Positions 1,141-16,493 of a DNA stretch of 64,000 bases are shown here, piece after piece. Made by a program: the position numbers and the translations under genes. The DNA comes from an uncultured Gemmatimonadota bacterium (GTDB lineage: Bacteria > JAAXHH01). Positions within the stretch are counted from its first letter, which is position 1; each line of letters begins with the position of its first letter. The stretch lies in assembly GCA_951812955.1 (NCBI GenBank), contig OX638340.1:672001-736000 (forward strand), given 5' to 3'. The notes beneath the pieces were generated by a model. It was not told the DNA's origin. It saw only the letters and a list, made by a program, of their open reading frames with translations, and did no database searches.

Positions 1141-2565
1141 CTACGGTATGGCGGCGACTCGCAGAAAGTCGGTATGACCAGGGCCCGCCGCGGGCGATCC
1201 GCCGACGATGACTATATGGTCCCCCCGGACCAGGCCACCGGCCTCCCGGGCCGCGTCGATCGACGTGCGAATCATGCCGTCGGTTCCGTCCGGCGAATCG
1301 AACTCTTCGCACTGCACGGGTTTGACGCCCCATACCAGGGCGAGACGTCGGACAGTTTCCTCATCCGGGCTCACCGCGATGACCGGAACGTTGATTCGGT
1401 ACCGGGCGGCCATCCGGGCGGTGTGGCCGGACCGCGTGCAGCAGACGATGGCCTTCGCGCGTGATTCCCGGGCAAGCACGCAGGAAGCGTGGCTGATGGC
1501 ACCGGAAACACCGTGCGTTTCGAATGGTCCAGACATACCGCCGGGCTTACGCTGGAACAGTCTTTCCTCGGCCTGTTCCGCGATGGCCGCCAGTGCGCGC
1601 ACCGCTTCCACCGGATAGGCGCCGATGGCGCTTTCTTCCGATAACATCACGGCATCCGATCCGTCGAGGACGGCATTGGCCACGTCCGCGGCCTCGGCCC
1701 GGGTGGGCCTGGGACTTTCGACCATGGAACGCAGCATCTGCGTCGCGGTGACCACGGGCCGTGCCGCGTGCAGGGCCTTGGTTATGATGTCCTTCTGTAC
1801 CAGCGGGACTTCCTGGTACGGTATTTCCACGCCCAGGTCTCCTCTCGCGACCATGAGCGCATCCACGGCCGGCAGGATGTCGTCGAGCGCATCCACGGCC
1901 TCCGGTTTCTCTATCTTCGCCATCAACGGCAGGCTCGAACCCCGGCTGTCCAGCAATGCGCGTGCGCTCATCACGTCCTTGCGGTTGCGGACGAAGGAAA
2001 GGGCGGCCATGTCCACACCCATGTCGAGCCCTTCCACCAGCAGGTCCCGGTCTTTCTCCGTGAAGGCGGCAATGCCCGACGCGCCGCGTGGTACCGTGAT
2101 GCCCTTGTGATCGGACAATATACCTCCCAGGAGCACCTTGCATCGTATATCGGGAGGTTCCACGGCCTGAATGCGCAACTCGACCAGCCCGTCCGCGAGC
2201 AAAAGGCGTTGCCCGGCTCGCACCTCGTCGGCCAGTTGCGCGTAGTTGACCGGGATGCGGGTCCGGTCTCCGGTCACGCGATCCGTAGTGAGGGTAATCT
2301 CTTCGCCCGCTCCCAGGGTTACGGGGCCGTCCCGGAATGTTCCAATGCGGATCTTGGGGCCGGGCAGGTCCTGAAGAACGGCGACGGGTTTACCGAGATC
2401 GCCCGCGGCGGATCGAATACGACGGACGCAGTCGCTATGTTCGTCGGGCGTGCCATGGGAGAAATTGAGCCGGAAGACATCGACGCCCGCTTCGAGTACC
2501 CGGCGGATCATATCGGATGAACTGATCGCGGGACCCACGGTGCAAACGATTTTGGTGCGTCGCAT
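1141..2565 (-). CDS. pyk: Pyruvate kinase
   Basis: N-terminus MRRTKIVCTVGPA, the FRLNFSHG and MVARGDLGVEIP motifs, and a length of 474 aa. Co-directional with, and 60 bp upstream of, the symporter. Confidence 0.9.
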   Translation of the reverse strand: MRRTKIVCTVGPAISSSDMIRRVLEAGVDVFRLNFSHGTPDEHSDCVRRIRSAAGDLGKPVAVLQDLPGPKIRIGTFRDGPVTLGAGEEITLTTDRVTGDRTRIPVNYAQLADEVRAGQRLLLADGLVELRIQAVEPPDIRCKVLLGGILSDHKGITVPRGASGIAAFTEKDRDLLVEGLDMGVDMAALSFVRNRKDVMSARALLDSRGSSLPLMAKIEKPEAVDALDDILPAVDALMVARGDLGVEIPYQEVPLVQKDIITKALHAARPVVTATQMLRSMVESPRPTRAEAADVANAVLDGSDAVMLSEESAIGAYPVEAVRALAAIAEQAEERLFQRKPGGMSGPFETHGVSGAISHASCVLARESRAKAIVCCTRSGHTARMAARYRINVPVIAVSPDEETVRRLALVWGVKPVQCEEFDSPDGTDGMIRTSIDAAREAGGLVRGDHIVIVGGSPAAGPGHTDFLRVAAIP

Positions 2566-2655
2566 CGGCTGGTCCTTCTGCGTGCCGTTCGCGTATAGGG
2601 GACCGGCCAGGTGCGGGTACGGCGGATGGTCCGGACCGCATCGCGCGTCCGGGGG

Positions 2656-5600
2656 TTACTTCAACACCCCGATGCGCGCGACATGCCCGCCGAGTTTGAG
2701 TTCGCCGGCGTGCACATCCACAGGTACGGGCTCCTCGCGCAGTTCCGTTGAAAGCGTTTCGGTCCTGATGTAGTCCGCGTGGGCGTCTATGGCCTCGGCC
2801 AGATCGCCTTCGGCTTCGTAGAACAGGGTAATCCTGTCGTTCACGTTGAAATCCGCTTCCTTGCGCATATTCTGCACATGACGGACAAAATCCCGCATCA
2901 ATCCCTCGAGGAGGAGATCGCGGGTGACCCTGGTGTCAATGGCGACCGTGCAGCCAAAGTCGGATGTCACCGCGAGCCCGTCCGCATCCACCCGTTCGAC
3001 AACGAGCTCCTCAGGCGTCAGCTCGACCTGTTCGCCGTCCACTTCAAGCGAAAGGGACCCGCCCGCCGCGACACGGGCACCGGTTTCGTGGCCGTCCAGC
3101 ACCTCGAGCGCCTGGCGCACGGCATTCAAACGCTTGCCGAACCGGGGACCCCATTTTGAAAAATCCGGTTTCACGGCGTACCCGCGAAAGGCATCCTCAT
3201 TATCGACCAGGTCCAGGTCCTTCACATTCAGTTCTTCCAGGATCTGAGCGCGCAGCCGCGTCAGGGTGTCTCCCTGCCGGGCGGTCGCGGGTTTCACCAG
3301 CAGGCGCAACGCGGGCTGGCGGACCTTCATCCGGGCTTCGTTGCGAACCGCGCGGCCCAGTTCGATCACCTGCATCAGGTCTTCCATGTCGTCCATGAGG
3401 TCCTGGTCGATCAATTCCTCGGAGACCTCCGGGTATCTGCAGAGATGGACGCTTGATGGCGCTGAAGAATCGATGGGCGGAACCAGGCTCTGATAGAGTT
3501 CCTCCGCGGAGAAAGGCAGAATAGGCGCGATCAGCTTGCTCATCGTGACCAGAACTTCGTAGAGCGTCTGGATGGCCGATTGCTTGTCCGCGTCATCGCC
3601 GCTCTTCCAGAACCGGCGCCTGCTCCGGCGGACGTACCAGGTGGAAAGCACGTCCATGAACCGTTCGGTTTCGCGTACCACGGTCGCCGAATCGAAATTA
3701 TCCAGCCGGTCGTTGCAGAGTCGGACCAGTTGATTGAGCCGGGAAAGCACCCACCTGTCGAGTTCGCTACGGCCCGAAACAGGAGCTGAGGCAGAAATGG
3801 GAGGGCAGTCCGGCAGATTGGCGTAGGTCACGAAGAAAGCGTATACGTTCCACAACCTGAGCATTTTCCGCATGACGTCTTCGGCGGGTCCATAGCCGAA
3901 CCGGAAGACCATGTTCAGCGGCGCGCCAGCGTATTGCCATCTCATCACATCGGCGCCCATACGGGCGGTGGCGTCCTCCACGGCGATCGCGTTATCGCCG
4001 CTCTTGCTGAAGGGTTCCCCGTTCTCGTCCCGCATTTCTTCGAAGGTGAGTACCGCCTTGAACGGGGTCCGGTCGTACAGGGTCACCGACATGAACAACT
4101 GGGAATAGAACCACAGCCTGATCTGTTCGCGCATTTCCGTGATCCAGTCAGCGGGAGACCATGATTCCCAGGCAGTATCCGTGCCGTTGCGGGAAACTCC
4201 GGTCTTGTCCCTTTCGGCCTCGGGCCCCCGTTCCGACCGGATCGTGCCATTGATCCCGCGGTGCTCCGGCAGATAGTTCAATGTTGAAAAAGGGACGATT
4301 CCCGCGTCGAGCCAGCAGTCCCCGACTTCGGTCACCCGCTTTACGGCCTCTCCGCAACGCTCGCAGGAAATCTCGATATCATCGATCCACGGACGATGGA
4401 GTTCGGGCAGCTCTTCGACCAGCGCGGGATTCACGGCCCGCTGCCGCAGTTCGGCCGTGCTGCCGATGACGTTCACGTGATCGCAGTTCCCACAATTGTA
4501 GAAGGGCAGGGGCAACCCCCAGAATCGGCGGCGCGATATGCACCAGTCCCCCATGTTGTCCAGCCAGTCCTGCATCAGGAGGCCGCTGTATTCGGGTACC
4601 CACCGGACCGTCGCGGCGGCCTGCTTCATCGGCGCCCTGATCTCGTCCGCTGAAATGAACCACTCGTCGGCCAGGCGAAAGACCAGCGGAGTCTTGCAAC
4701 GCCAACAGAAGGGATACCGGTGCGTGTAGTCTTCCCAGCGAAACAACACGCCCCTGGATTCCAACTCCCGCCTGACGCCTTCTGCTGATTCCCGTACATG
4801 GGTGGCTGTCAGTGGCCCCATATCGTCTGTGAAATAACCGTTCTCATCAATGGGCACAATGATGGCCAGGCCGAGTTCCTGCCCGAGCTGATAATCCTCG
4901 GCGCCACAGCCCGGTGCGATATGCACGATGCCCGTGCCTTCCTCGTCAGATACCATGTCCCACGGAACGGTGGTGCGGTTGACCTCACGCTGCGCGGGGA
5001 GATCCTCCAGAGGGCCGTGGAAGGGCAGCCCGATCAGATCCTTGCCCTTCACGGTCTCGACCACTACCGCTTCGGGCGGCAGGACGGTCTCGACGAGTGA
5101 CTTCATCAAGTAGTAGTATTCGCCGTCCAGGCTCGCTTTCGCGTATTCGGCTTCAGGATGCAAGGCCAGGGCCGTATTGGCGGTCAGGGTCCACGGCGTA
5201 GTGGTCCAGACCAGGAAATACTCGTCCCTTCGGCCCCCGACCCGGCATCGGAAGAAACAGGATGGATCGGTCTGCTCCTGGTAAGAATCCACCAGCTCGT
5301 GCTGGCTCAGGCTGGTCCCGCACCGCCAGCACCAGGGCATGGAACGGTAACCGCGGTACAGCCATTTCCTGGCGTCGCAGGCCTTCAGAAAATGCCAGAT
5401 ATGCTCGATGTTGTTGTCATCCAGGGTGTAGTAGGAGGCCGGATGGCCGTCGTCGTGGTACCACTGCATCCAGTGTCCCATGCGAATGGACTGCCGCGTT
5501 ATCCGCTCCGCGTACTCGTCCACCCGAGCGCGGCACGCCCGGGAGAACTCGGCGAGACCGAACGACTCGATGTCCCGTTTCGAATCAAAACCAAGCGCCC

Positions 5601-5895
5601 GCTCCACCTCGACTTCCACCCACAAGCCCTGACAGTCGAACCCGTTCTGCCACCGCTGGTTGAATCCCTTCATGGCTTTGTACCGGCAGTACATGTCCTT
5701 GTAGGTCCGGCCCCAGGCGTGATGAACGCCCATGGCGTTATTCGCGGTGATCGGTCCGTCGATAAAGGACCAGGTCGGTCGATCCGCCAATTGTGCTCGC
5801 AGTTTGTCGAAAATCCGATGGTCCTCCCACCATGCGAGGATGCGCTCCTCCATCCGGGGGTATTCCATCTTTCCATCAAAGGGTTTGAATTTCAT
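2656..5895 (-). CDS. ileS: Isoleucine--tRNA ligase
   Basis: 1079 aa class-I aaRS with a HIGH-type region (NNAMGVHHAWGRT), a KMSKS-like FSKSGDN motif, and an editing and anticodon-binding architecture typical of IleS. Confidence 0.92.
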   Translation of the reverse strand: MKFKPFDGKMEYPRMEERILAWWEDHRIFDKLRAQLADRPTWSFIDGPITANNAMGVHHAWGRTYKDMYCRYKAMKGFNQRWQNGFDCQGLWVEVEVERALGFDSKRDIESFGLAEFSRACRARVDEYAERITRQSIRMGHWMQWYHDDGHPASYYTLDDNNIEHIWHFLKACDARKWLYRGYRSMPWCWRCGTSLSQHELVDSYQEQTDPSCFFRCRVGGRRDEYFLVWTTTPWTLTANTALALHPEAEYAKASLDGEYYYLMKSLVETVLPPEAVVVETVKGKDLIGLPFHGPLEDLPAQREVNRTTVPWDMVSDEEGTGIVHIAPGCGAEDYQLGQELGLAIIVPIDENGYFTDDMGPLTATHVRESAEGVRRELESRGVLFRWEDYTHRYPFCWRCKTPLVFRLADEWFISADEIRAPMKQAAATVRWVPEYSGLLMQDWLDNMGDWCISRRRFWGLPLPFYNCGNCDHVNVIGSTAELRQRAVNPALVEELPELHRPWIDDIEISCERCGEAVKRVTEVGDCWLDAGIVPFSTLNYLPEHRGINGTIRSERGPEAERDKTGVSRNGTDTAWESWSPADWITEMREQIRLWFYSQLFMSVTLYDRTPFKAVLTFEEMRDENGEPFSKSGDNAIAVEDATARMGADVMRWQYAGAPLNMVFRFGYGPAEDVMRKMLRLWNVYAFFVTYANLPDCPPISASAPVSGRSELDRWVLSRLNQLVRLCNDRLDNFDSATVVRETERFMDVLSTWYVRRSRRRFWKSGDDADKQSAIQTLYEVLVTMSKLIAPILPFSAEELYQSLVPPIDSSAPSSVHLCRYPEVSEELIDQDLMDDMEDLMQVIELGRAVRNEARMKVRQPALRLLVKPATARQGDTLTRLRAQILEELNVKDLDLVDNEDAFRGYAVKPDFSKWGPRFGKRLNAVRQALEVLDGHETGARVAAGGSLSLEVDGEQVELTPEELVVERVDADGLAVTSDFGCTVAIDTRVTRDLLLEGLMRDFVRHVQNMRKEADFNVNDRITLFYEAEGDLAEAIDAHADYIRTETLSTELREEPVPVDVHAGELKLGGHVARIGVLK

Positions 5896-7174: not shown

Positions 7175-8577
7175 TTGCATAGCGAAAAACCCAACATCCT
7201 CTTTTTGTTTTCAGATGACCAGCGCTTCGATACGGTGAATTCGCTTGGAAATCCAGGCGTGCATACGCCGTCGATGGATCGGCTTGCGGCACGGGGGACG
7301 GCCTTCACGCACGCGCACATTCCCGGAGGCACGTCCGCCGCGATATGCATGCCGAGCCGTGCCATGCTGCACACCGGGCGCACGCTGTTTCACCTGGACG
7401 GCGCGGGCGAGGACATACCTCGGGACCATGTGCTCATGGGCGAGCATCTGAAAAGTTGCGGATACCGCACCTGGGGCACGGGCAAATGGCACAACGGCGT
7501 CTCGGCTTTCGCACGCAGCTTTTCTGATGGGGCCGAGATATTCTTCGGAGGTATGGACGACCACTGGAACGTGCCCGTCTTCGACTATGATCCGCAAGGC
7601 CGGTATGAAGGGACGTTACCGCAGTGTCCCGACGCGTTTCATTCCAATGCGTTGAAAGTCCGGCGCGGGGACCGCGTGTCGGCGGGAAGGCATTCCAGCG
7701 AGTTGTTCGGCGAATGCGCCGCGGACTGGCTGGAGAGCTACGAAGGCACCGATCCATTTTTCATGTACGTGTCCTTCATGGCGCCCCACGATCCCCGGAC
7801 CGTGCCACAGGCGTACCTGGACCTGTACGATCCGGAACAGATCCCGCTTCCCGGCAATTTCCAGGGCGGCCATCCCTTCGACAACGGCGATCTCAAAGTC
7901 AGGGATGAAGTGTTGGAAGATTTTCCGCGCGACCCGTTTAAAGTACGCCGGCACATCGCCGAATACTACGGAATGATCACCCACCTGGACGCCCAGATGG
8001 GCCGAATCCTGGACGTGCTGGACACCCGGGGCATGACGGACAATACGATCGTGGTCTTTGCCGGCGACAACGGATTGGCCGTGGGGCAGCACGGACTGTT
8101 CGGCAAACAGAACATGTACGAACACAGCGTGCGGATTCCCCTTATGTTCGCCGGACCGGGAATACCCCGGGGGTTTGCCGATCTTCCTACGCTTACCTGC
8201 TGGACATCTTCCCGACGCTGTGCGAACTGGCCGGCATCGATACACCCGAATCCGTCGAAGGAACGAGTCTGGCCTCCGCCATGGCGGATCCCGGCGTGCG
8301 ACCCCGGACATCCCTGTATGCCGCGTACCAACAGTGGCAACGCATGGTCAAGGATGCCCGGTTCAAACTGATCGAATACGTCGTCGACGGCCGTCGAACG
8401 ACCCAGTTGTTCGACCTGGAACGCGATCCGTCGGAGTGTCGCAACCTGGCCGGCGATCCGTCCGAACAGGACCGGCTGCGAGCACTCAGGGACCTGCTTT
8501 TTCAATGGCGCGACGACTGGGACGATGCCCGGAGTCCATGGGGCAAGGCCTTCTGGGACGGTTACGACGCCCATTGA
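7175..8577 (+). pseudogene. Cys-type sulfatase (arylsulfatase family) interrupted by a single -1 frameshift near 8180-8190; either a pseudogene or a 1-nt assembly error
   Basis: Frame A (7175..8371) carries LFLFSDDQRFD and the C-M-P-S-R FGly motif. Frame B (8191..8577) continues with AYLLDIFPTLCELAGI...LERDPSECRNLA, the conserved sulfatase C-terminus. Inserting one nucleotide near 8183 restores ...GIPRGFADxSYAYLLDIFPTL. Confidence 0.6.
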
Positions 8578-8609: not shown

Positions 8610-10346
8610 TCAGGCGACGGCCGTCCGGTTCCTGGCAATCCGGTACAGTATCTGGCTCATGGCGCCAAGTCCCAATATGACCAGCAACCCGTTGACAACC
8701 CAGCCGACATAGGGCAGGCTGACCGCGACCAGCACCAGTACCAGTCCAACAGACAACGCCAAAGCCACCGAACGCATGTCCTGCCGCTTCGATCGCAACA
8801 GTGCGGTGCCCAGATAGTGCGCCACGACGATCTTGGACAGGTAAAGTCCCACCGCCCATATAACCACCGTGACCAATCCTACTGGAATACCGATGAGTGT
8901 CACGGCAAACACCGCCGCTGCGACCGGCAGGGTAATGAGGATAACAACCCCGGTGCCGGCGGACACGAGTATCGACCTGAAATCTTCCAGCGGCTGGATT
9001 CTGAAAGCGGGTAGTGCCCAGAACACCAACATGCCCGATATGAATGCCGCGGCCAGCCACAAGACCGAAAACAGGAGCGACCAGAACGACCAGGACGACC
9101 AGAACGACCCGGCCTCCTCCTGGCGCTCTTCGTAAACGTCGATACTTGTCGTGCCCGCCACAGATGAGACGGAGTCCACCAGCAGGTCTTCCTCACTCGG
9201 CAATTCCACGTCGAGGTTGCCGCCGATCGATGCGGACGACTGAATGGCCGCAACACGCCCCGAGAAGGTTACATCCCGCAATACCTTGCCCGATACGGTA
9301 AGCCTGTTGCCGAACACCGTCACATTGCGGCCTACCGAACCGCCCACGTTGATCTGGTCGGCGAAAGCAAAAAGATCGCCTCCGATAGCGGCGTCCCGTC
9401 TCGTTAGAATGGACTTGCCGAACCAGTATACGCTTTGTCCGACCGTATTTCCCATGCGAATCATCTCTCCGAATGCCCCGACTCCGCCTTCGACCTTGCC
9501 TTCAATCTCTATGATCTGCCCGAAAAAGAACGCGTCTCCGTGCACCGAGCCCTGGATATCGATCGATTCCGCGAAGGCGATCAGGTCTCCGGTTACCACC
9601 CCGTCAATACGCACGGTACGACCGAAGGCAACGAAGGTGTCATCGATGACTTCATTGGCTTCAATCGACACACTCTCGCCGGATTTGATCTCGATGGCTT
9701 TCGCCGGCGTGGCTGCTATGAATGCCAGAATCAGGGTGCCAAGTATCACCGGCAACCCAGAGGACCTTTGAAAACTCGCATAAATCAAATAGACAAGCGT
9801 GCCGAGAAGGGCGGTGATTCCGGCGGTTATCATCAGGGATTCCATGATCGATCCTCCTTCGCGAATTAAATAGACACATGAGCTGAACAGCAGGGACAGC
9901 TGACCGGAAACCTGGAGCGGATTGAGCCAGGCCAGTCCCCAGGGCAGCTGAAGTCCGGTAACCAGGTCGAACCCCATCCTCAACAAAAGCGCGGTTCCGA
10001 TGACCAGTCCCATGAGTTGCAGGACCAGTGCCGGGGAAGAGGCCGGGACAGGCACATGAGACGAGGCCGGGACAGGCACATGAGATGAGGCCGGGACAGG
10101 TAACGGAGATGAGGCCGGGACAGGTAACGGCTCAGATTCAGCCAGGAACGCATCTGCGTTACCGATAAACCCGACGAGCGTTTCTCTTTCCACCTGGAAC
10201 GCAAGGACCAGTTCACGGCAACGGGGACAGCGGTCCAGATGTTCGCGCAACAGCTTGGCTTCGGATACGGACAACTCGCCATCGGCGTACATCGCGCAGG
10301 TCAGTTCGGCCGGACAGGACTTGCTACGCACACCTGTATCGGTCAT
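8610..10346 (-). CDS. Anti-sigma factor: N-terminal zf-HC2 zinc finger, PVPASS 8-aa repeats, TM segments, a beta-helical bactofilin/CcmA-like repeat domain and a C-terminal multi-TM region
   Basis: CPxC...CPRCRELV zinc-finger motif. Its start overlaps the stop of the upstream ECF sigma gene (ATGA). Repetitive V-x-G-x-V-x-GD-x-x-FA motifs and hydrophobic stretches are present. Confidence 0.65.
   Translation of the reverse strand: MTDTGVRSKSCPAELTCAMYADGELSVSEAKLLREHLDRCPRCRELVLAFQVERETLVGFIGNADAFLAESEPLPVPASSPLPVPASSHVPVPASSHVPVPASSPALVLQLMGLVIGTALLLRMGFDLVTGLQLPWGLAWLNPLQVSGQLSLLFSSCVYLIREGGSIMESLMITAGITALLGTLVYLIYASFQRSSGLPVILGTLILAFIAATPAKAIEIKSGESVSIEANEVIDDTFVAFGRTVRIDGVVTGDLIAFAESIDIQGSVHGDAFFFGQIIEIEGKVEGGVGAFGEMIRMGNTVGQSVYWFGKSILTRRDAAIGGDLFAFADQINVGGSVGRNVTVFGNRLTVSGKVLRDVTFSGRVAAIQSSASIGGNLDVELPSEEDLLVDSVSSVAGTTSIDVYEERQEEAGSFWSSWSFWSLLFSVLWLAAAFISGMLVFWALPAFRIQPLEDFRSILVSAGTGVVILITLPVAAAVFAVTLIGIPVGLVTVVIWAVGLYLSKIVVAHYLGTALLRSKRQDMRSVALALSVGLVLVLVAVSLPYVGWVVNGLLVILGLGAMSQILYRIARNRTAVA
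10036..10131 (-). repeat. 24-nt in-frame tandem repeat x4 encoding (P/H)(L/V)PVPASS inside the anti-sigma gene
   Basis: ggccgggacagg recurs every 24 nt at 10041, 10065, 10089 and 10113. Confidence 0.75.
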
Positions 10347-10918
10347 AATTCGGCCAGCTCCTTTCTCAATTGCTGCTTGGCGCGGAATAGCAGCGTCGCT
10401 ACCGTATTTCGTTTCAGCCCGAGGGCATTTCCGATTTCGTCGTAGGTAAACTGGTTATAGTAAGCCAGTATGAGCGGCACGCGGTACTTCTCAGGTAGCG
10501 ATTGGACGGCGGACCGCACGCTTTCCCCCTTTTCCGCCTGCACAAGATATTCGAGCGTATCCTCGGACACCCTGGACGGTCCGATCCGATCGAAGCCTGC
10601 GGTTTCGAAGATCCTGGTCTCCGAACTGCTACGCCGCAATCGGTCAAGACAGTGATTGGTCGCTATTTTAAGCAGCCAGTTCAGGCATGACTTCGAGTGA
10701 TCAATCGTCGAACGCTTCTCGTAGGCGCGGACGAAAACTTCATGGGTCGCGTCCTCGGCCTCGTCGGCTGACTTCAACAGATACCTGCAAAGCGCGAGAA
10801 TCCGCCGGGAGTGCTTCCGGTAGCTCTCGTCGAAGTCGTAATCCATCATGGAGGGATTTCCAGCATTCGAATTCACGTCTCTACTACGGATAACCGGACG
10901 AAATAGTTTCATTTCCAT
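10343..10918 (-). CDS. ECF (sigma-70 family, group 4) RNA polymerase sigma factor
   Basis: Region 2 and region 4 features (LLKIATNHCLDRLRR; YDEIGNALGLKRNTVATLLFRAKQQLR) and a 4-nt overlap with the downstream anti-sigma gene. The true start may be the internal MMDYDF. Confidence 0.8.
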   Translation of the reverse strand: MEMKLFRPVIRSRDVNSNAGNPSMMDYDFDESYRKHSRRILALCRYLLKSADEAEDATHEVFVRAYEKRSTIDHSKSCLNWLLKIATNHCLDRLRRSSSETRIFETAGFDRIGPSRVSEDTLEYLVQAEKGESVRSAVQSLPEKYRVPLILAYYNQFTYDEIGNALGLKRNTVATLLFRAKQQLRKELAEL

Positions 10919-11108
10919 GTCCGAAAGGACTGGTACGCCGGCGGCACCGGTGGAATCGAGACATTACAGGTGGGGACCGGACGGGCCGGTGTTGCGCGTT
11001 ACTGCTGATCAGGCAGGGGAGTGGAAGGGAATAAACCGGGTTACAAAAACACATCGTCAGGCCAGGGGAGCCTGGACGTGCAAATACCCTTCAATTACCG
11101 GCTGTTCC

Positions 11109-14010
11109 CTAATCCTCTACAACGACTTTCTCGACCGCCACAGCGCAGTACTTGAACTCGGGGATCTTGCCCTCGGGATCCAGCGCGTCGTTGGTCAGGA
11201 TATTGGCGGCCGCTTCCTTGAAGTGGAAGGGAATGAAAACGTTGCCTTCGGCGACCCGCGTCGAAGCCTTCGACTTCAGCGTGATGGCGCCGCGGCGGGA
11301 GGAGACGACGACCGGTTCGCCGTCGACTACGCCGAGCAGGTCCAGGTCTGCCGGCGTCATCTCGACGAACGCTTCGGGCGCTATGGCATCCAGGGCCTTC
11401 GCCCGGCGGGTCATGGTTCCCGTATGCCAGTGTTGCAGAAGCCGTCCGGTATTCAGGACAAAGGGGAACTCAGCGTCCGGCAGTTCATCGGGCGGCGCGA
11501 AGGATACGGGCATGAATCGCCCCCGTCCGATGGGGAAGGTGTCGCTGAAGAGGATGGGCTCGTCAAGCGGCCATACCACCGTGCTTTGTTCCATCGATTC
11601 ATAGGTGATCCCATTGAATATAGGCGTTAGGCCCACGATCTCCTCCCAGACTTCCTCCGGCCCCCCGTATTCCCATGCGTCTATCGCATCGCCTTGCTCC
11701 ATCCGTATCATCCGGTTGGCCAGATCGATCAGTATATCCCCGTCCAGCCGCGCTTCGCCTGGTGGCTGGATCGCCTGCCTGCCGACCTGGACCATGCGGT
11801 TGGTGTTGACATAGGTGCCTCGTTTCTCGATCGCGGTGGAAGCCGGCAGGACCACGTCGGCGAATTCGGCGGTCTCCGTCAGGAAGATGTCCTGAACGAC
11901 CAGGAAGGACAGGTTCTGCAGGGCTTTTCTTACCTTGTTCATGTTCGGGTCCGACAGGAAGGGATTCTCTCCCATCATGAACATGCCCGCGATGCGTCCA
12001 TCGAGCGCGCCGTGCATGATCTCCACGACGGTCAGTCCATCCGCCGGATCCAGGGCTTTGCCCCATGCGGATTCGAATCGTCTGCGAACTTCCTGGTCCG
12101 TAACAGGCTGATAGCCCGGGTAGTACCGGGGGATCAGTCCCACGTCAGAAGCGCCCTGCACGTTGTTCTGGCCGCGCAGGGGATGCAGCCCGGTGCCGCG
12201 GCGCCCGATATTGCCGGTCATGAGACACAGCGAAATGAGCGCGCGGGCATTGTCGGTGCCCTTGACGTGCTGGCTGATCCCCATGCCCCAGAAGATGATC
12301 GCCCGCTCCGCGCGCCCGTAAACTCGCGCCAGCTCTTCAATCAATTCCGCGGAAACGCCGGTGATCCTGGAGGTCATTTCCGGGTTGTATGAACGCACCG
12401 ATTCGGCGAGTGCTTCGATTTTTTCGGTACGGTCCGCGATGAACGCGTCGTCCTGCAATCCTTCCCGCAGAATTACGTGCATCAATCCGTTGAGTAACGC
12501 GACATCCGTGCCGGGCTTGAACCGCACGTACCGGGTGGCGTGGTCCGCGATGGTGGGCCGACGCGGATCGAGCACGTAGAGCTTGATCCCCTTCTGGGCC
12601 GCCTGTTTCAAGTAGGTGGCGGCAACGGGATGGTTGTCCTCGGTATTGGAGCCGATCACGAAGATCACGTCCGTATCGAGGACTTCCTGGAAGGCGTTCG
12701 ACACGGCCCCGCTTCCGATGGCCTCCGTGAGTGCCGCAACGGAAGACGCGTGGCAGAGACGCGTGCAGTGGTCTACGTTGTTGGTACCGAATACGACACG
12801 GATCAGCTTCTGGAAGAGGTAGGCTTCCTCGTTGGTGACCTTGGCCGAACCGAAGCCGGCCAGGGCGCCCGGTCCGTTCGATTGCTTGATTTCCAGCAGC
12901 TTTCGGGCCGCGAGGTCGAGCGCCTCATCCCATTCGGCTTCCCGGTATACTTCGCGGATGCGGTCGTTCCAGTCCGCGGACCGCAGCGAACGCCTGAATT
13001 CCCGGTAATCCGTAAAATCCGCCGAAAGCGGTTGCTTGGGATAGGCGTCTTCCCTCCTGATGAGCGGTTTCAGGAGCCGCTGCGGATGGTGCGTGTAGTC
13101 GTAGCCATACCTTCCCTTGACACACAGCCTGCCTTCCGTGTGGGTTTCCTCCCGTCCGGTCGCCCTCAGGATCCTGTTGTTTCGAACATGGTACGTGATG
13201 CCACAGCCCACCCCGCAGTAGGGACACAGGGAGTCGATCCGCGTAACGTCCCGTTCATCCCCTTGCGAAACGACATCGCGGGGTACGTGTTGTTCGCGAT
13301 CGGACAGGCAATCCGGGTCTGCGGCCGGTTTCACGGACCCGGGACTGCTCCCGGCCGTATCTACGAGCGGGATGTCGGTCAGAGCCCCGGTGGGACAGGC
13401 GGCCACACATTCACCGCAGGAGACGCAGGAGGACTTCCCCATGGGCAGGTCGTTGTCGAAGGCGATCCGGGTACCGCAGCCCTTGCCGGCACGGCCAATG
13501 ACGTCGTTTACCTGCACGTCGTCGCAGGCGCGGATACAACGGTCGCACAGGATGCAGGCATTGTGCGCCACCGCGATCACCGGCGAGGACACATCCTCAT
13601 GTTGCGTCGGATTCGGCGCCGCCGGGGCAAACCTATCGGGTCGCGCGGCGAGTTGCCTACCCAGACGCGCCAGTTCATCATGCTCGACCGGCTTGCGCCG
13701 TTCCGGCGCCTTCGGCTGTCCGGCCTCCAGCAATTCCACGAGGGTACGGCGGGTGCGCCGGACCCGCTCCGTATCGGTACGCACGACCATGCCCTCTTCC
13801 ACCTGGCGGATGCAAGCCGCCGGCAAGGTCCGGGCGTTTTCCACGTCTACTACGCACACGCGGCATACGGCCACGGGACGCATCCCTGGATCGTGGCAAA
13901 GCGTGGGGATTTCGATACCGGCCGAGCGGGCCGCATCCCAGATCGTGGCGCCTTCCGGCGCGGTTACGCGTCTGCCGTCGAGGGTCAGCGTCACGGAATC
14001 ACTGCGCATC
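11109..14010 (-). CDS. fdhA: Formate dehydrogenase catalytic (alpha) subunit, molybdopterin oxidoreductase with N-terminal 2Fe-2S/4Fe-4S domains; Cys-type with no in-frame TGA
   Basis: N-terminus MRSDSVTLTLDGRRVTAPEGATIWDAA...CHDPG...CRVC followed by multiple Cys clusters and the molybdopterin-binding regions. The longer ORF extending to 14189 reads through the upstream gene's 3' end and is not credible. Confidence 0.8.
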
Positions 14011-15702
14011 GGCACCGCCCGTGGTACGATCGGCCTGGCGATCGGCCTGAGGATCGGCCTGGCGATCCGCCGCTTGCCGACAGAGGATCTCGAACTCTTC
14101 CGGGAAATGCCGGCGGGCGGAGGTAAGCGGAAGTGCCGCAGCCTGGCCGAGCCCGCATATGGACGATAGCTCCATCGCTTCTGCAACATCCTTTACGGGT
14201 GCCAGCATGTCGGGCCGCCCGTTGCCTTCAAGTACCTTTTCCAATAGCTGAACGAGATGCTCCGTACCGGTCCGGCAGGGCACGCACTTTCCGCAGGATT
14301 CGTTGCGAAAGAACGTTACCGCGTTCAAGGCTAGATCCACCATGTTTGTGCCCTCGGCCAGAACGATGACCGCACCGGACCCCAGCATGGACCCGGCGTC
14401 CGCGAGGGGCTTGAAGTCAAGCGGGATATCCGCCATGGAAGCTGGAAGGAAACCCGACGACGTGCCTCCCGGAGAAAAGGCCTTCAGCTTGCGACCGTCG
14501 GAAACGCCGCCCCCCTCGTTATCAATGAGATCGCGAACCCGCGTTCCGAGGGGGATTTCGTACACGCCGGGCCGGTTGACATGCCCGCTGAGGGCGATGT
14601 ACTTGCGTCCCGCCGCGCCGTTTATCCCCTGGCTTCTGAACCATTCGGCGCCGCGACGCAAAATGGCGGGCACCCAGGCGAACGTCTCCACATTGTTGAT
14701 GAGCGTGGGCCTGCCGTGTAGCCCGTGCGTACCCGGGAACGGCGGCTTGTTCCGGGGTTCTGCACGTTTGCCTTCCATTGCTTCCAGCAGAGCCGTCTCC
14801 TCGCCGCAGATATAACCGCCCGGACTGTCGAAGATCTCAAGGTGAAACGAATGTTCCGAATTGAACACGCCGTCGCCCAGGTATCCCGCGGAGTAGAACG
14901 CCCTGATGGTCTTCTCCAGCACTTCCCGTTCCCGTTCGTATTCATGGCGAAGGTAAAGGTATCCCTGATTTGCCCCGACCACGAGACCACCCAGGATCAG
15001 CCCTTCGACGACGAGATGGGGATAGTGGTACAGGATCTCGCGGTCCTTGAACGTGCCGGGTTCGCTCTCGTCCGCATTGCAGATCGCGTACTTGTCCTCG
15101 GATTCGGCCTTTCGGACCAGATCCCACTTCACCCCCGTCGGGAACCCGGCTCCGCCCATGCCGCACAGCCCGCTGTCCTTGATTACCTGCAGAATCCGGT
15201 CCGAGTTGCCGTCCGAAACCCACGCTTTTAACGATTCGGCGGCCAGTGGATGGCCATAGGGATCAATAAGCCCGGGGCTGGCACGCCGCCGGGTGGGCTG
15301 CCGGGCGACCCTTCCGTCCTCGGCCAACCGGGCGACGAAATTGCTAAGACGGTCCGGTGACATGGAACGGTAACTGAGATCGTTGATCGAGACCGCCGGC
15401 GCCCCATCGCACTGTCCAAGGCAGGAAACTCCGGTTACCTCCCAGTTTTCAAGCCCGGCATAATCCACGGTTTCCCGCAGGGTCTCCAGCAGGTCACAGG
15501 CGCCGTGGAGGTGGCACGTGAGGTCGGTACAGACGCGCAGCGTAGCCACCGGGGGAGGCTCAAGTCTGAAGTGAGGGTAGAAGCTGGCCACGCCATGGGC
15601 TTCGTAGAGGGGAATGCCCTTCCGCTCCGACAGGGATTTCAGTTCATCTTCAGGCAGATAGCCGTGGCGCGCCTGTATCTCCTTCAGATCATCTATCAGC
15701 AT
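13999..15702 (-). CDS. NuoE-like thioredoxin-fold 2Fe-2S domain fused to NuoF-like NAD/FMN/4Fe-4S flavoprotein (formate dehydrogenase beta/gamma fusion)
   Basis: N-terminal VCTDLTCHLHGA...CLGQCDGAP (NuoE 2Fe-2S) followed by the GMGGAGFPTG and ESCGKCVPCR motifs of the 51-kDa NuoF family. The 12-nt overlap with fdhA start suggests translational coupling. Confidence 0.8.
   Translation of the reverse strand: MLIDDLKEIQARHGYLPEDELKSLSERKGIPLYEAHGVASFYPHFRLEPPPVATLRVCTDLTCHLHGACDLLETLRETVDYAGLENWEVTGVSCLGQCDGAPAVSINDLSYRSMSPDRLSNFVARLAEDGRVARQPTRRRASPGLIDPYGHPLAAESLKAWVSDGNSDRILQVIKDSGLCGMGGAGFPTGVKWDLVRKAESEDKYAICNADESEPGTFKDREILYHYPHLVVEGLILGGLVVGANQGYLYLRHEYEREREVLEKTIRAFYSAGYLGDGVFNSEHSFHLEIFDSPGGYICGEETALLEAMEGKRAEPRNKPPFPGTHGLHGRPTLINNVETFAWVPAILRRGAEWFRSQGINGAAGRKYIALSGHVNRPGVYEIPLGTRVRDLIDNEGGGVSDGRKLKAFSPGGTSSGFLPASMADIPLDFKPLADAGSMLGSGAVIVLAEGTNMVDLALNAVTFFRNESCGKCVPCRTGTEHLVQLLEKVLEGNGRPDMLAPVKDVAEAMELSSICGLGQAAALPLTSARRHFPEEFEILCRQAADRQADPQADRQADRTTGGADAQ
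14028..14075 (-). repeat. 12-nt tandem repeat (gatcggcctggc/gag, about 3.5 copies) encoding a DRQA/DPQA repeat tail at the C-terminus of the NuoEF-like protein
   Basis: Read directly from the sequence. Confidence 0.7.
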
Positions 15703-15725
15703 GTAACTGGTCCGGTATGATTCGG

Positions 15726-16493
15726 TTACGAGGCGAGTTGGCGTATCGAGGTCGTCCAGCCCGAGTCGTCGATATCGACGATCCGGAACGCGGCCGGTTC
15801 GTCCGTAGCAATGACACGGGTGCCGTCCGCTCTGATTACGGGGTCCTTGCGAAACTGCAGTCCCACGCTCGGTGCGGTCAGGACGGTTGCATGGTCGAGT
15901 TCAATGCAGAAGTCGTGGTGCACGTGACCGCACAGGATCAGTCGTAACGAGGGGTGGGCATTGCATATTCGGAGAAAACGGCCGCTTTCCTGCAGTATCA
16001 ACTCATCCATCCAGGCGACGCCCACGGGTACGGGCGGGTGATGCATGCAGATGACGGCGGGCGGATTGGTAGACAACCCACGCTCCAGCCAGTCCAGCTG
16101 AACGTCGTTCAGCCTGCCCGCCACCTCCCCTTCGTCCTGCGTATCGAGCACGATAACCCGTTGGCCGGCCCGCTCCAGCGCGTAGTAGTAAGGGGCCGAA
16201 TTCGCAACGGACTCTTCCAGCATGATCCGGCGGAAGACCGGTCTGTAATCGTGATTGCCTATAGCCATGTGACAGGGAAAACGAAGGTAAGAAAGAACGT
16301 CCTTGATCGCCCGGTAGGAGTCTTCGGATCCGTCGTTTATTTGATCGCCCGTCATGACGACGAGATCGGGCGAGGGACTCAGCACGTTGACCGCATCAAT
16401 GGCGGCCCGAAGCCGTCCCAGCGTGTCCTGGCCGTGGACGGGCTGCCGGTCCGCCGGCACGATATGGGGATCGGAAAGCTGAACGATGCGCAT
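15726..16493 (-). CDS. Metallophosphoesterase (calcineurin-like; CpdA-type phosphodiesterase)
   Basis: DPH...GDQ...GNHD...GHVH metallophosphatase motifs in order. Confidence 0.75.
   Translation of the reverse strand: MRIVQLSDPHIVPADRQPVHGQDTLGRLRAAIDAVNVLSPSPDLVVMTGDQINDGSEDSYRAIKDVLSYLRFPCHMAIGNHDYRPVFRRIMLEESVANSAPYYYALERAGQRVIVLDTQDEGEVAGRLNDVQLDWLERGLSTNPPAVICMHHPPVPVGVAWMDELILQESGRFLRICNAHPSLRLILCGHVHHDFCIELDHATVLTAPSVGLQFRKDPVIRADGTRVIATDEPAAFRIVDIDDSGWTTSIRQLAS

Follow-up and report, generated by a model that had tools for sequence, protein, structure and literature searches.

An ECF sigma factor gene overlaps the gene for a zinc-type anti-sigma factor with a predicted beta-helix and eight predicted membrane helices in an uncultured Gemmatimonadota bacterium

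We analysed a 64,000-nucleotide stretch of DNA from an uncultured Gemmatimonadota bacterium (contig OX638340.1 of assembly GCA_951812955.1, positions 672,001 to 736,000; this whole stretch is called the window). At positions 8610 to 10918 of the window lies a pair of genes for an extracytoplasmic function (ECF) sigma factor and a membrane-embedded anti-sigma factor. Both genes are on the minus strand and both are open reading frames (ORFs). The sigma gene (10343..10918) encodes 191 amino acids, and the anti-sigma gene (8610..10346) encodes 578 amino acids with eight predicted transmembrane (TM) crossings. The stop codon of the first and the start codon of the second overlap as ATGA. An earlier note on this DNA, made without database searches, had described the pair and suggested an unusual division of the anti-sigma factor into a zinc finger, a repeat linker, a bactofilin-like beta-helix and a multi-TM C-terminus.

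The sigma gene encodes an ECF (group IV) sigma-70 factor. Its product scores above the cut-offs of Sigma70_r2 (54.9 bits, E=7.6e-15), Sigma70_r4_2 (52.6 bits, E=3.6e-14) and TIGR02937, the model for sigma70-ECF proteins (86.4 bits, cut-off 42.9). The Pfam scan returned no match to sigma region 3 or region 1 models, and among the specific ECF subgroup models none reached its cut-off. The ORF opens with MEM..., and in alignments the ATG, GTG or TTG starts of its orthologues fall on the second ATG (10912); the true start may therefore lie there, 6 nt downstream of 10918. Upstream of the gene, on the same strand, the space between ORFs leaves a 190-bp intergenic gap (10919..11108) that presumably holds the promoter.

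At the N-terminus of the 578-residue protein is a cytoplasmic class I anti-sigma domain (residues 9-68, 10143..10322, minus strand) with the arrangement C11...H36-x3-C40-x2-C43. A hidden Markov model search, which the earlier note had proposed as a check, detected zf-HC2 (PF13490) above threshold (30.3 bits against a gathering score of 22.2, E=4.4e-7), and the same model was found in 73 of 75 relatives. In the 75-sequence alignment of full-length relatives, C43 is invariant and C11, H36 and C40 are at least 90% conserved. Compared with sequences in the PDB, the family profile matched RsiW (2.3e-5), RslA (6.9e-5) and DdvA (1.6e-4). We modelled the whole protein with AlphaFold2 from the same alignment, at a mean predicted local distance difference test score (pLDDT) of 75.7. 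The anti-sigma domain forms helices at 14-21, 27-39, 41-61 and 65-68 in this model (pLDDT about 88-91), and its local Foldseek matches were ChrR (probability 0.98) and RslA (0.95). The zf-HC2 match, the H-x3-C-x2-C motif with its upstream ligand and the conserved sigma gene beside it place the protein among the class I zinc-type anti-sigma factors (ZAS).

Known ZAS proteins, including RsiW, RslA, ChrR, RsrA and DdvA, share with it the N-terminal helical domain, the H-x3-C-x2-C motif with an upstream cysteine, and a gene that lies directly downstream of its ECF sigma gene and overlaps it. RsiW, RslA and DdvA are single-pass membrane proteins and RsrA and ChrR are soluble, whereas eight TM helices are predicted for the window protein, with a beta-helix in the position of a sensor.

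Between the anti-sigma domain and the first TM helix, on the cytoplasmic side, AlphaFold2 predicts a disordered linker (residues 71-104, pLDDT <50). Tandem Repeats Finder (TRF) located four in-frame 24-nt repeats within it, encoding PLPVPASS twice and HVPVPASS twice (residues 73-104, 10035..10130, minus strand; 4.1 copies, 88% matches), in agreement with what had been read from the letters. Relatives that are 86-92% identical carry the eight-residue unit once (P0010 and P0011), twice (P0006 and P0008), three times (P0003 and P0005) or, like the window protein, four times (P0002 and P0004). At 50-60% identity a single Pro/Ala/Ser stretch takes the place of the PVPASS repeats, and in P0030 this site holds a different insertion, rich in Ala and Pro. 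Since the copy number ranges from one to four among close relatives, the length of the linker appears free to vary, and the suggestion that it is mutable holds.

The central part of the protein (residues 218-405, 9132..9695, minus strand) is predicted to fold into a right-handed beta-helix; its windings, about 10 in number and each 17-19 residues long, follow the pattern phi-x-phi-F-G-x-x-phi-x-phi-x-G-x-V-x-G-D. Its pLDDT is 86-95 within the whole-protein model, and when modelled alone it reached a mean pLDDT of 97.8 and a predicted template modelling score (pTM) of 0.91. A right-handed beta-helix is also the fold of bactofilins. Sequence comparisons place the domain near this family without bringing the window protein inside it: the Pfam Bactofilin model (PF04519) scored 19.0 bits with the whole protein and 22.6 bits with the domain alone, short of its gathering score of 27.9. 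At E<=0.01 the same model matched 67 of the 75 full-length relatives (best 7.8e-11) and 28 of 30 isolated beta-helix domains (best 4.8e-10). In addition, a profile of the beta-helix domain had a sole significant match among PDB sequences, BacA of Caulobacter (2n3d, E=1.5e-4). The sequence link is thus specific but remote: relatives match the model and the window protein falls below its threshold, which makes it a probable distant bactofilin relative and not a formal member. The bactofilin-like label in the earlier note agrees with the predicted fold and with the closest sequence family, with the correction that this protein's own Pfam score is below threshold.

Bactofilins such as BacA, the Thermus bactofilin and CcmA resemble the domain in their right-handed beta-helix, in windings of about 17-18 residues and in a G-x-V-x-GD type pattern. 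They have about 6 windings, compared with about 10 here. They also sit in the cytoplasm at the inner face of the membrane, whereas the predictions put the window domain outside the cytoplasm, between TM helices on both sides. TM-bearing bactofilin homologues, with the helix at the N-terminus, are rare (about 3.2%) and were set aside in the study that reported them (PMC12448750).

We located TM helices by Kyte-Doolittle hydropathy and assigned their sidedness from loop charges averaged over the 75 relatives, following the positive-inside rule. Three helices precede the beta-helix (about 106-126, 169-192 and 197-216) and five follow it (420-446, 458-480, 485-507, 525-545 and 548-568). The earlier note had placed TM helices before the repeat domain without giving their number, which these predictions set at three, and its multi-TM C-terminus agrees with the five. 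The first helix (9969..10031, minus strand) coincides with an AlphaFold2 helix at 105-130. The second and third form a hairpin (9699..9842, minus strand) joined by a short, Arg-rich loop that is predicted to be cytoplasmic (mean Lys+Arg 2.1, zero acidic residues), and the third ends in PAKA right before the beta-helix. The five C-terminal helices make up a membrane domain (residues 418-570, 8637..9095, minus strand) that AlphaFold2 models at pLDDT 80-90 over residues 421-577, with conserved polar residues (S504, K505, H510 and N552) inside the helices. Where the beta-helix meets TM4, TRF found a small in-frame repeat that encodes SFWSSWSFWS (residues 414-423, 9078..9107, minus strand; period 9, 3.6 copies); close relatives differ here by one three-residue unit in the alignment.

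The segment between TM1 and TM2 (residues 127-166, 9849..9968, minus strand) has many invariant columns, with the motif ELPW..WLNPL..SGQLS.LF....Y.I.EGG. It is net acidic (mean Lys+Arg 1.19 against Asp+Glu 3.53), hydropathy found no stretch within it long enough for a TM helix, and we predict an extracytoplasmic or membrane-interface position for it. Mean Lys+Arg is high in the loops TM2-TM3 (2.1), TM4-TM5 (1.8) and TM6-TM7 (1.9) and in the C-terminal tail (2.1), and it is 0 in TM5-TM6 and TM7-TM8. These charges, together with an anti-sigma domain that is necessarily cytoplasmic, give a topology with the N-terminus in, the beta-helix out and the C-terminus in. The beta-helix is therefore predicted outside the cytoplasm, tethered by a TM helix at each end. 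The earlier note had named two outcomes as refuting its proposal, the lack of any bactofilin-like or beta-helix profile hit and a repeat domain wholly inside the membrane, and neither was what we found.

Independent support for this placement comes from relatives that contain the beta-helix and the five-helix domain and stand alone, without an anti-sigma domain. These proteins of 350-450 residues consist of a signal peptide, a beta-helix and five TM helices and are 25-40% identical to the window protein over residues 210-578. In one of them, P0118, the signal peptide ends ...ALASVKA and the beta-helix opens with IEIKSGESV; the window protein reads ...ATPAKA and then the identical IEIKSGESV. 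A signal peptide directly before the beta-helix argues that this domain is outside the cytoplasm. The stand-alone proteins differ from the window protein in lacking TM1 and its juxtamembrane segment as well as the anti-sigma domain, and they occur in varied gene contexts with no adjoining sigma genes.

The C-terminal membrane domain probably corresponds to DUF8173. A precomputed match to the Pfam model of that name, PF26514, is recorded for P0001, which is identical to the window protein, and for most relatives; 131 full-length homologues carry precomputed matches to zf-HC2 and DUF8173, with or without Bactofilin. PF26514 is on record for P0066 and P0110-P0119, in which the C-terminal region is kept, and absent from P0068 and P0069, which do not have that region. 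The label is lost with the C-terminal helices and survives loss of the N-terminus, so the model probably covers the C-terminal membrane domain. A few family members also weakly match the YccF membrane domain. Our literature search found no paper that mentions DUF8173.

Conservation of the gene pair was examined at related loci, taking one genome per species and 21 closer sequences as queries, which yielded 21 loci. All are metagenome-assembled genomes (MAGs), labelled Latescibacterota, Gemmatimonadetes or Terriglobia. The sigma orthologue ends at the anti-sigma start in 20 of 20 evaluable loci. An apparent absence of the sigma gene in L016 was rejected, as a masked run of N covers the region. 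Four further relatives from other lineages, 30-38% identical, all have an ECF sigma gene immediately upstream with a 4-nt overlap (4/4), which brings the total to 24 of 24 evaluable loci. The other neighbours in the window are not retained in these four. The sigma gene is kept while the other neighbours are lost, and the conserved unit is thus a two-gene module. The pairing of an ECF sigma factor with a zf-HC2 protein, which had been proposed from the letters, is well supported by this conservation and by the domain scores.

An exhaustive search of clusters at 50% identity with residues 210-578, which cover the beta-helix and the C-terminal helices, recovered 9114 representatives at E<=1e-3; the number falls to 5135 at 1e-10 and to 471 at 1e-30. 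Among the best 150 representatives, 106 are at least 500 residues long, and a regular-expression test on N-termini found HxxxCxxC within the first 90 residues of 103 of these. In the other three long proteins the N-terminus is anti-sigma-like but lacks the zinc motif, and the remaining 44 of the 150 are shorter and start with a signal peptide or a TM hairpin. How uncommon the architecture is, as the earlier note had called it, depends on where one looks. In the literature that we could search it is uncommon, in that no ECF group listed there is typically paired with an eight-TM anti-sigma factor; in sequence space it is not, as 103 of the best 150 representatives carry the fusion.

A literature search found no paper on an anti-sigma factor with a bactofilin-type domain. 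Bactofilins are not mentioned in the main text of two ECF classification papers or in two supplements of the second. The ECF reclassification lists typical anti-sigma TM counts of one (82 groups), two (14), six (5), four (3) and three (1), and an eight-TM anti-sigma factor falls outside these counts (PMC7826278). The closest functional analogy, as an analogy only, is with the beta-helix of the Toastrack signalling proteins LiaF, LiaG, VraT and YvlB (DUF4097/DUF2154/DUF2807; PMC11237479), those of the LiaF type being envelope-stress proteins. Toastrack domains are predicted to be intracellular (PMC11237479), whereas the window beta-helix is predicted outside, and their output is mostly a two-component system. 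None of the Toastrack Pfam models matches the window protein at E<=1, and none is among the families matched by its relatives. Among membrane anti-sigma factors, the NrsF-type (DUF1109) proteins of the sigma-F ECF group are likewise multi-pass, with six helices. They have neither a zf-HC2 domain nor a beta-helix, and our analysis found no sequence relationship between NrsF and the window protein. NrsF-type proteins probably let go of sigma when their membrane or periplasmic portion changes, and not by the classical proteolysis of single-pass anti-sigma factors.

Together, these observations describe a real gene pair that is one ordinary member of a widespread anti-sigma family and a variation on a well-known regulatory theme. 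We propose, with a probability of roughly 70%, that it forms a translationally coupled two-gene module in which an ECF sigma factor is controlled by a membrane-embedded class I zinc-binding anti-sigma factor whose outward-facing and membrane-embedded parts sense an envelope signal. In this model, the N-terminal 70 residues, on the cytoplasmic side, would hold the sigma factor at the membrane and away from RNA polymerase. A flexible linker of Pro, Ala and Ser, variable in length, would join this domain to a membrane body of eight helices. The beta-helix, about 190 residues long and presumably rigid, would project outside the cytoplasmic membrane and be held there by TM3 and TM4. Beta-helix and five-helix domain probably represent a pre-existing DUF8173-type module that became fused to an anti-sigma domain. 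Acting from outside and within the membrane, this module would sense a signal associated with the envelope, and perturbation of the beta-helix, of the eight helices or of both would free the sigma factor, either through a conformational change passed along the helices or through regulated proteolysis.

Several observations weigh against this model. Residues 127-166 have low pLDDT, and the topology would invert if this segment crossed the membrane; the signal-peptide relatives argue against such an inversion. Searching the PDB with Foldseek, using either the whole or the domain-only model, gave no significant match for the beta-helix and did not single out bactofilins; Foldseek is poor at telling beta-solenoids apart, and only its local matches to the anti-sigma domain were useful. 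We found no sigma-70-type promoter on the minus strand of 10919..11108 and no autoregulated ECF-type promoter upstream. Neither aligned upstream regions nor a search for a bipartite ECF-like pattern gave a motif convincingly common to the window and its relatives. Nothing in the neighbourhood points to a regulon, and none could be identified. Finally, the best-known examples of regulated intramembrane proteolysis among anti-sigma factors are single-pass proteins, as opposed to the eight helices predicted here.

A bolder version of the same idea makes the DUF8173-type module a new class of envelope sensor, in which an extracytoplasmic bactofilin relative would report a physical property of the envelope across eight helices without proteolysis. 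The beta-helix would be positioned at or close to the outer surface of the cytoplasmic membrane, fixed at both ends, and candidate properties include the packing or curvature of the membrane, cell-wall contact and lateral clustering. We hold this to be tentative and on balance doubtful. If it were true, the fused relatives, which number in the hundreds, would make up a large and unrecognised branch of ECF signalling, represented here mostly by MAGs of uncultured bacteria.

Sensing could instead reside in the cytoplasmic zinc-cysteine site itself, acting as a thiol or redox sensor as in RsrA, with the membrane body serving as an anchor or in an unrelated role. C11, H36, C40 and C43 are conserved, their spacing is nearly that of the RsrA ligands (C11, H37, C41 and C44), and the protein weakly matches the RsrA model TIGR03988 (E=4.5e-4). 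However, that score is far under the model's cut-off (20.3 against 62.5 bits), many zinc-type anti-sigma factors are not known to be redox sensors, and the zinc motif is absent from three of the 106 long relatives that keep the architecture. Conservation within the protein is moreover highest in the outward-facing and membrane parts, which speaks for a function of these parts. A redox switch at the zinc site is on this evidence improbable.

The earlier note had raised the thought that the beta-helix might self-polymerise. In this view it would assemble end to end, as bactofilins do, and its assembly, and with it the state of the cytoskeleton or envelope, would control sigma release. Remote homology to polymer-forming bactofilins and a regular beta-helix of high predicted confidence would fit this, and clustering in the plane of the membrane would be compatible with it. 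Against it, the window protein is under the Pfam Bactofilin threshold. Each end of the helix also runs straight into a TM segment, and its outermost windings are irregular and acidic, which makes free stacking ends unlikely. A domain that is predicted outside the cytoplasm, as the signal-peptide relatives also indicate, and held by the membrane at both ends is unlikely to form a cytoskeleton-like polymer or to be coupled to cytoskeletal state, and this part of the earlier proposal is not supported.

It is also conceivable, at a low probability, that the DUF8173-type module has an envelope function of its own, structural or in transport, and that the anti-sigma domain reports the abundance, insertion or integrity of the module, serving as feedback or as a checkpoint, with no external ligand involved. 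The module is widespread alone, without sigma linkage; polar residues are conserved inside its C-terminal helices; and the weak YccF matches are to a membrane domain. The searched literature does not treat the DUF8173 family, however, and this explanation is hard to separate from the envelope-signal model, as both predict sigma release when the module is perturbed. A last possibility, that chance adjacency or a gene-fusion or assembly error produced the pairing or the long ORF, is in effect already refuted: the sulfatase gene next door is frameshifted in a homopolymer run, so the assembly or the genome itself does contain errors, but more than 100 full-length homologues of equal length and architecture come from many independent assemblies, and a sigma gene adjoins in every evaluable locus.

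The surroundings of the pair are syntenic within the lineage of the 21 loci. In the window, upstream are NuoE/F-like and formate-dehydrogenase-like genes; downstream are a convergent sulfatase gene, a YgjP-like peptidase gene and a class I tRNA synthetase gene. The upstream set (11109-16268, minus strand) resembles an NAD-dependent formate dehydrogenase and is syntenic in 18-19 of the 21 related loci. It comprises a 1026-residue molybdopterin oxidoreductase with a NuoG-like N-terminus, a 567-residue NuoE/NuoF fusion and a 180-residue ORF without a Pfam match. We considered the synteny with the formate-dehydrogenase-like and sulfatase genes as a functional clue and rejected it: it is confined to one lineage and lost in distant relatives, and therefore says little about function.

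The sulfatase gene (7175-8577, plus strand) is split into ORFs of 398 and 98 residues by a frameshift at about 8170-8173, in a CCCCGGGGG run. Its orthologue in L001 is intact (496 residues) and 93-94% identical on either side of the break; the split gene is either a pseudogene or the product of a homopolymer indel error in the assembly. In L016, the formate-dehydrogenase-like orthologue (2560-5856) contains a low-complexity insertion rich in Gly, Ala, Ser and Asp (GAGAPGAGASGSDAS repeats) beside the masked N, and no insertion of this type is present in the window protein.

A candidate ECF-type promoter element, AAT[TA]C-N14-15-CGTAA, recurs in distant relatives 20-90 nt before the sigma start (L028-L030, L007, L008 and L020) and is not convincingly present in the window. 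In L013, L010 and L018 the intergenic region ahead of the sigma gene (locus coordinates about 5200-5420) has tandem duplications of 20-40 nt, and in L013 a unit of the type GCTGC(C/T)GCTTCGCG occurs there several times. Repeat expansion thus seems to affect the promoter region as it does the linker.

The loci L001-L021 encode proteins at least 50% identical, in conserved synteny, under the labels Latescibacterota, Gemmatimonadetes, Terriglobia or simply 'bacterium', which suggests inconsistent taxonomic labelling of what is probably one lineage of uncultured bacteria. Across the wider family, labelled relatives are MAGs of Gemmatimonadota, Latescibacterota, Acidobacteriota and Zixibacteria, together with one Pseudomonadales MAG. 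The family is large, with at least 103 clusters (50% identity) that carry the fusion and thousands that carry the module alone. Pairs of ECF sigma and anti-sigma factors are among the main routes by which bacteria sense their envelope, and the sensor domain sets what is sensed. In this family a standard zinc-type anti-sigma domain is combined with a module without a description in the literature that we searched. Knowing the signal would give DUF8173 a role and would test whether bactofilin-type helices act beyond the cytoskeleton.

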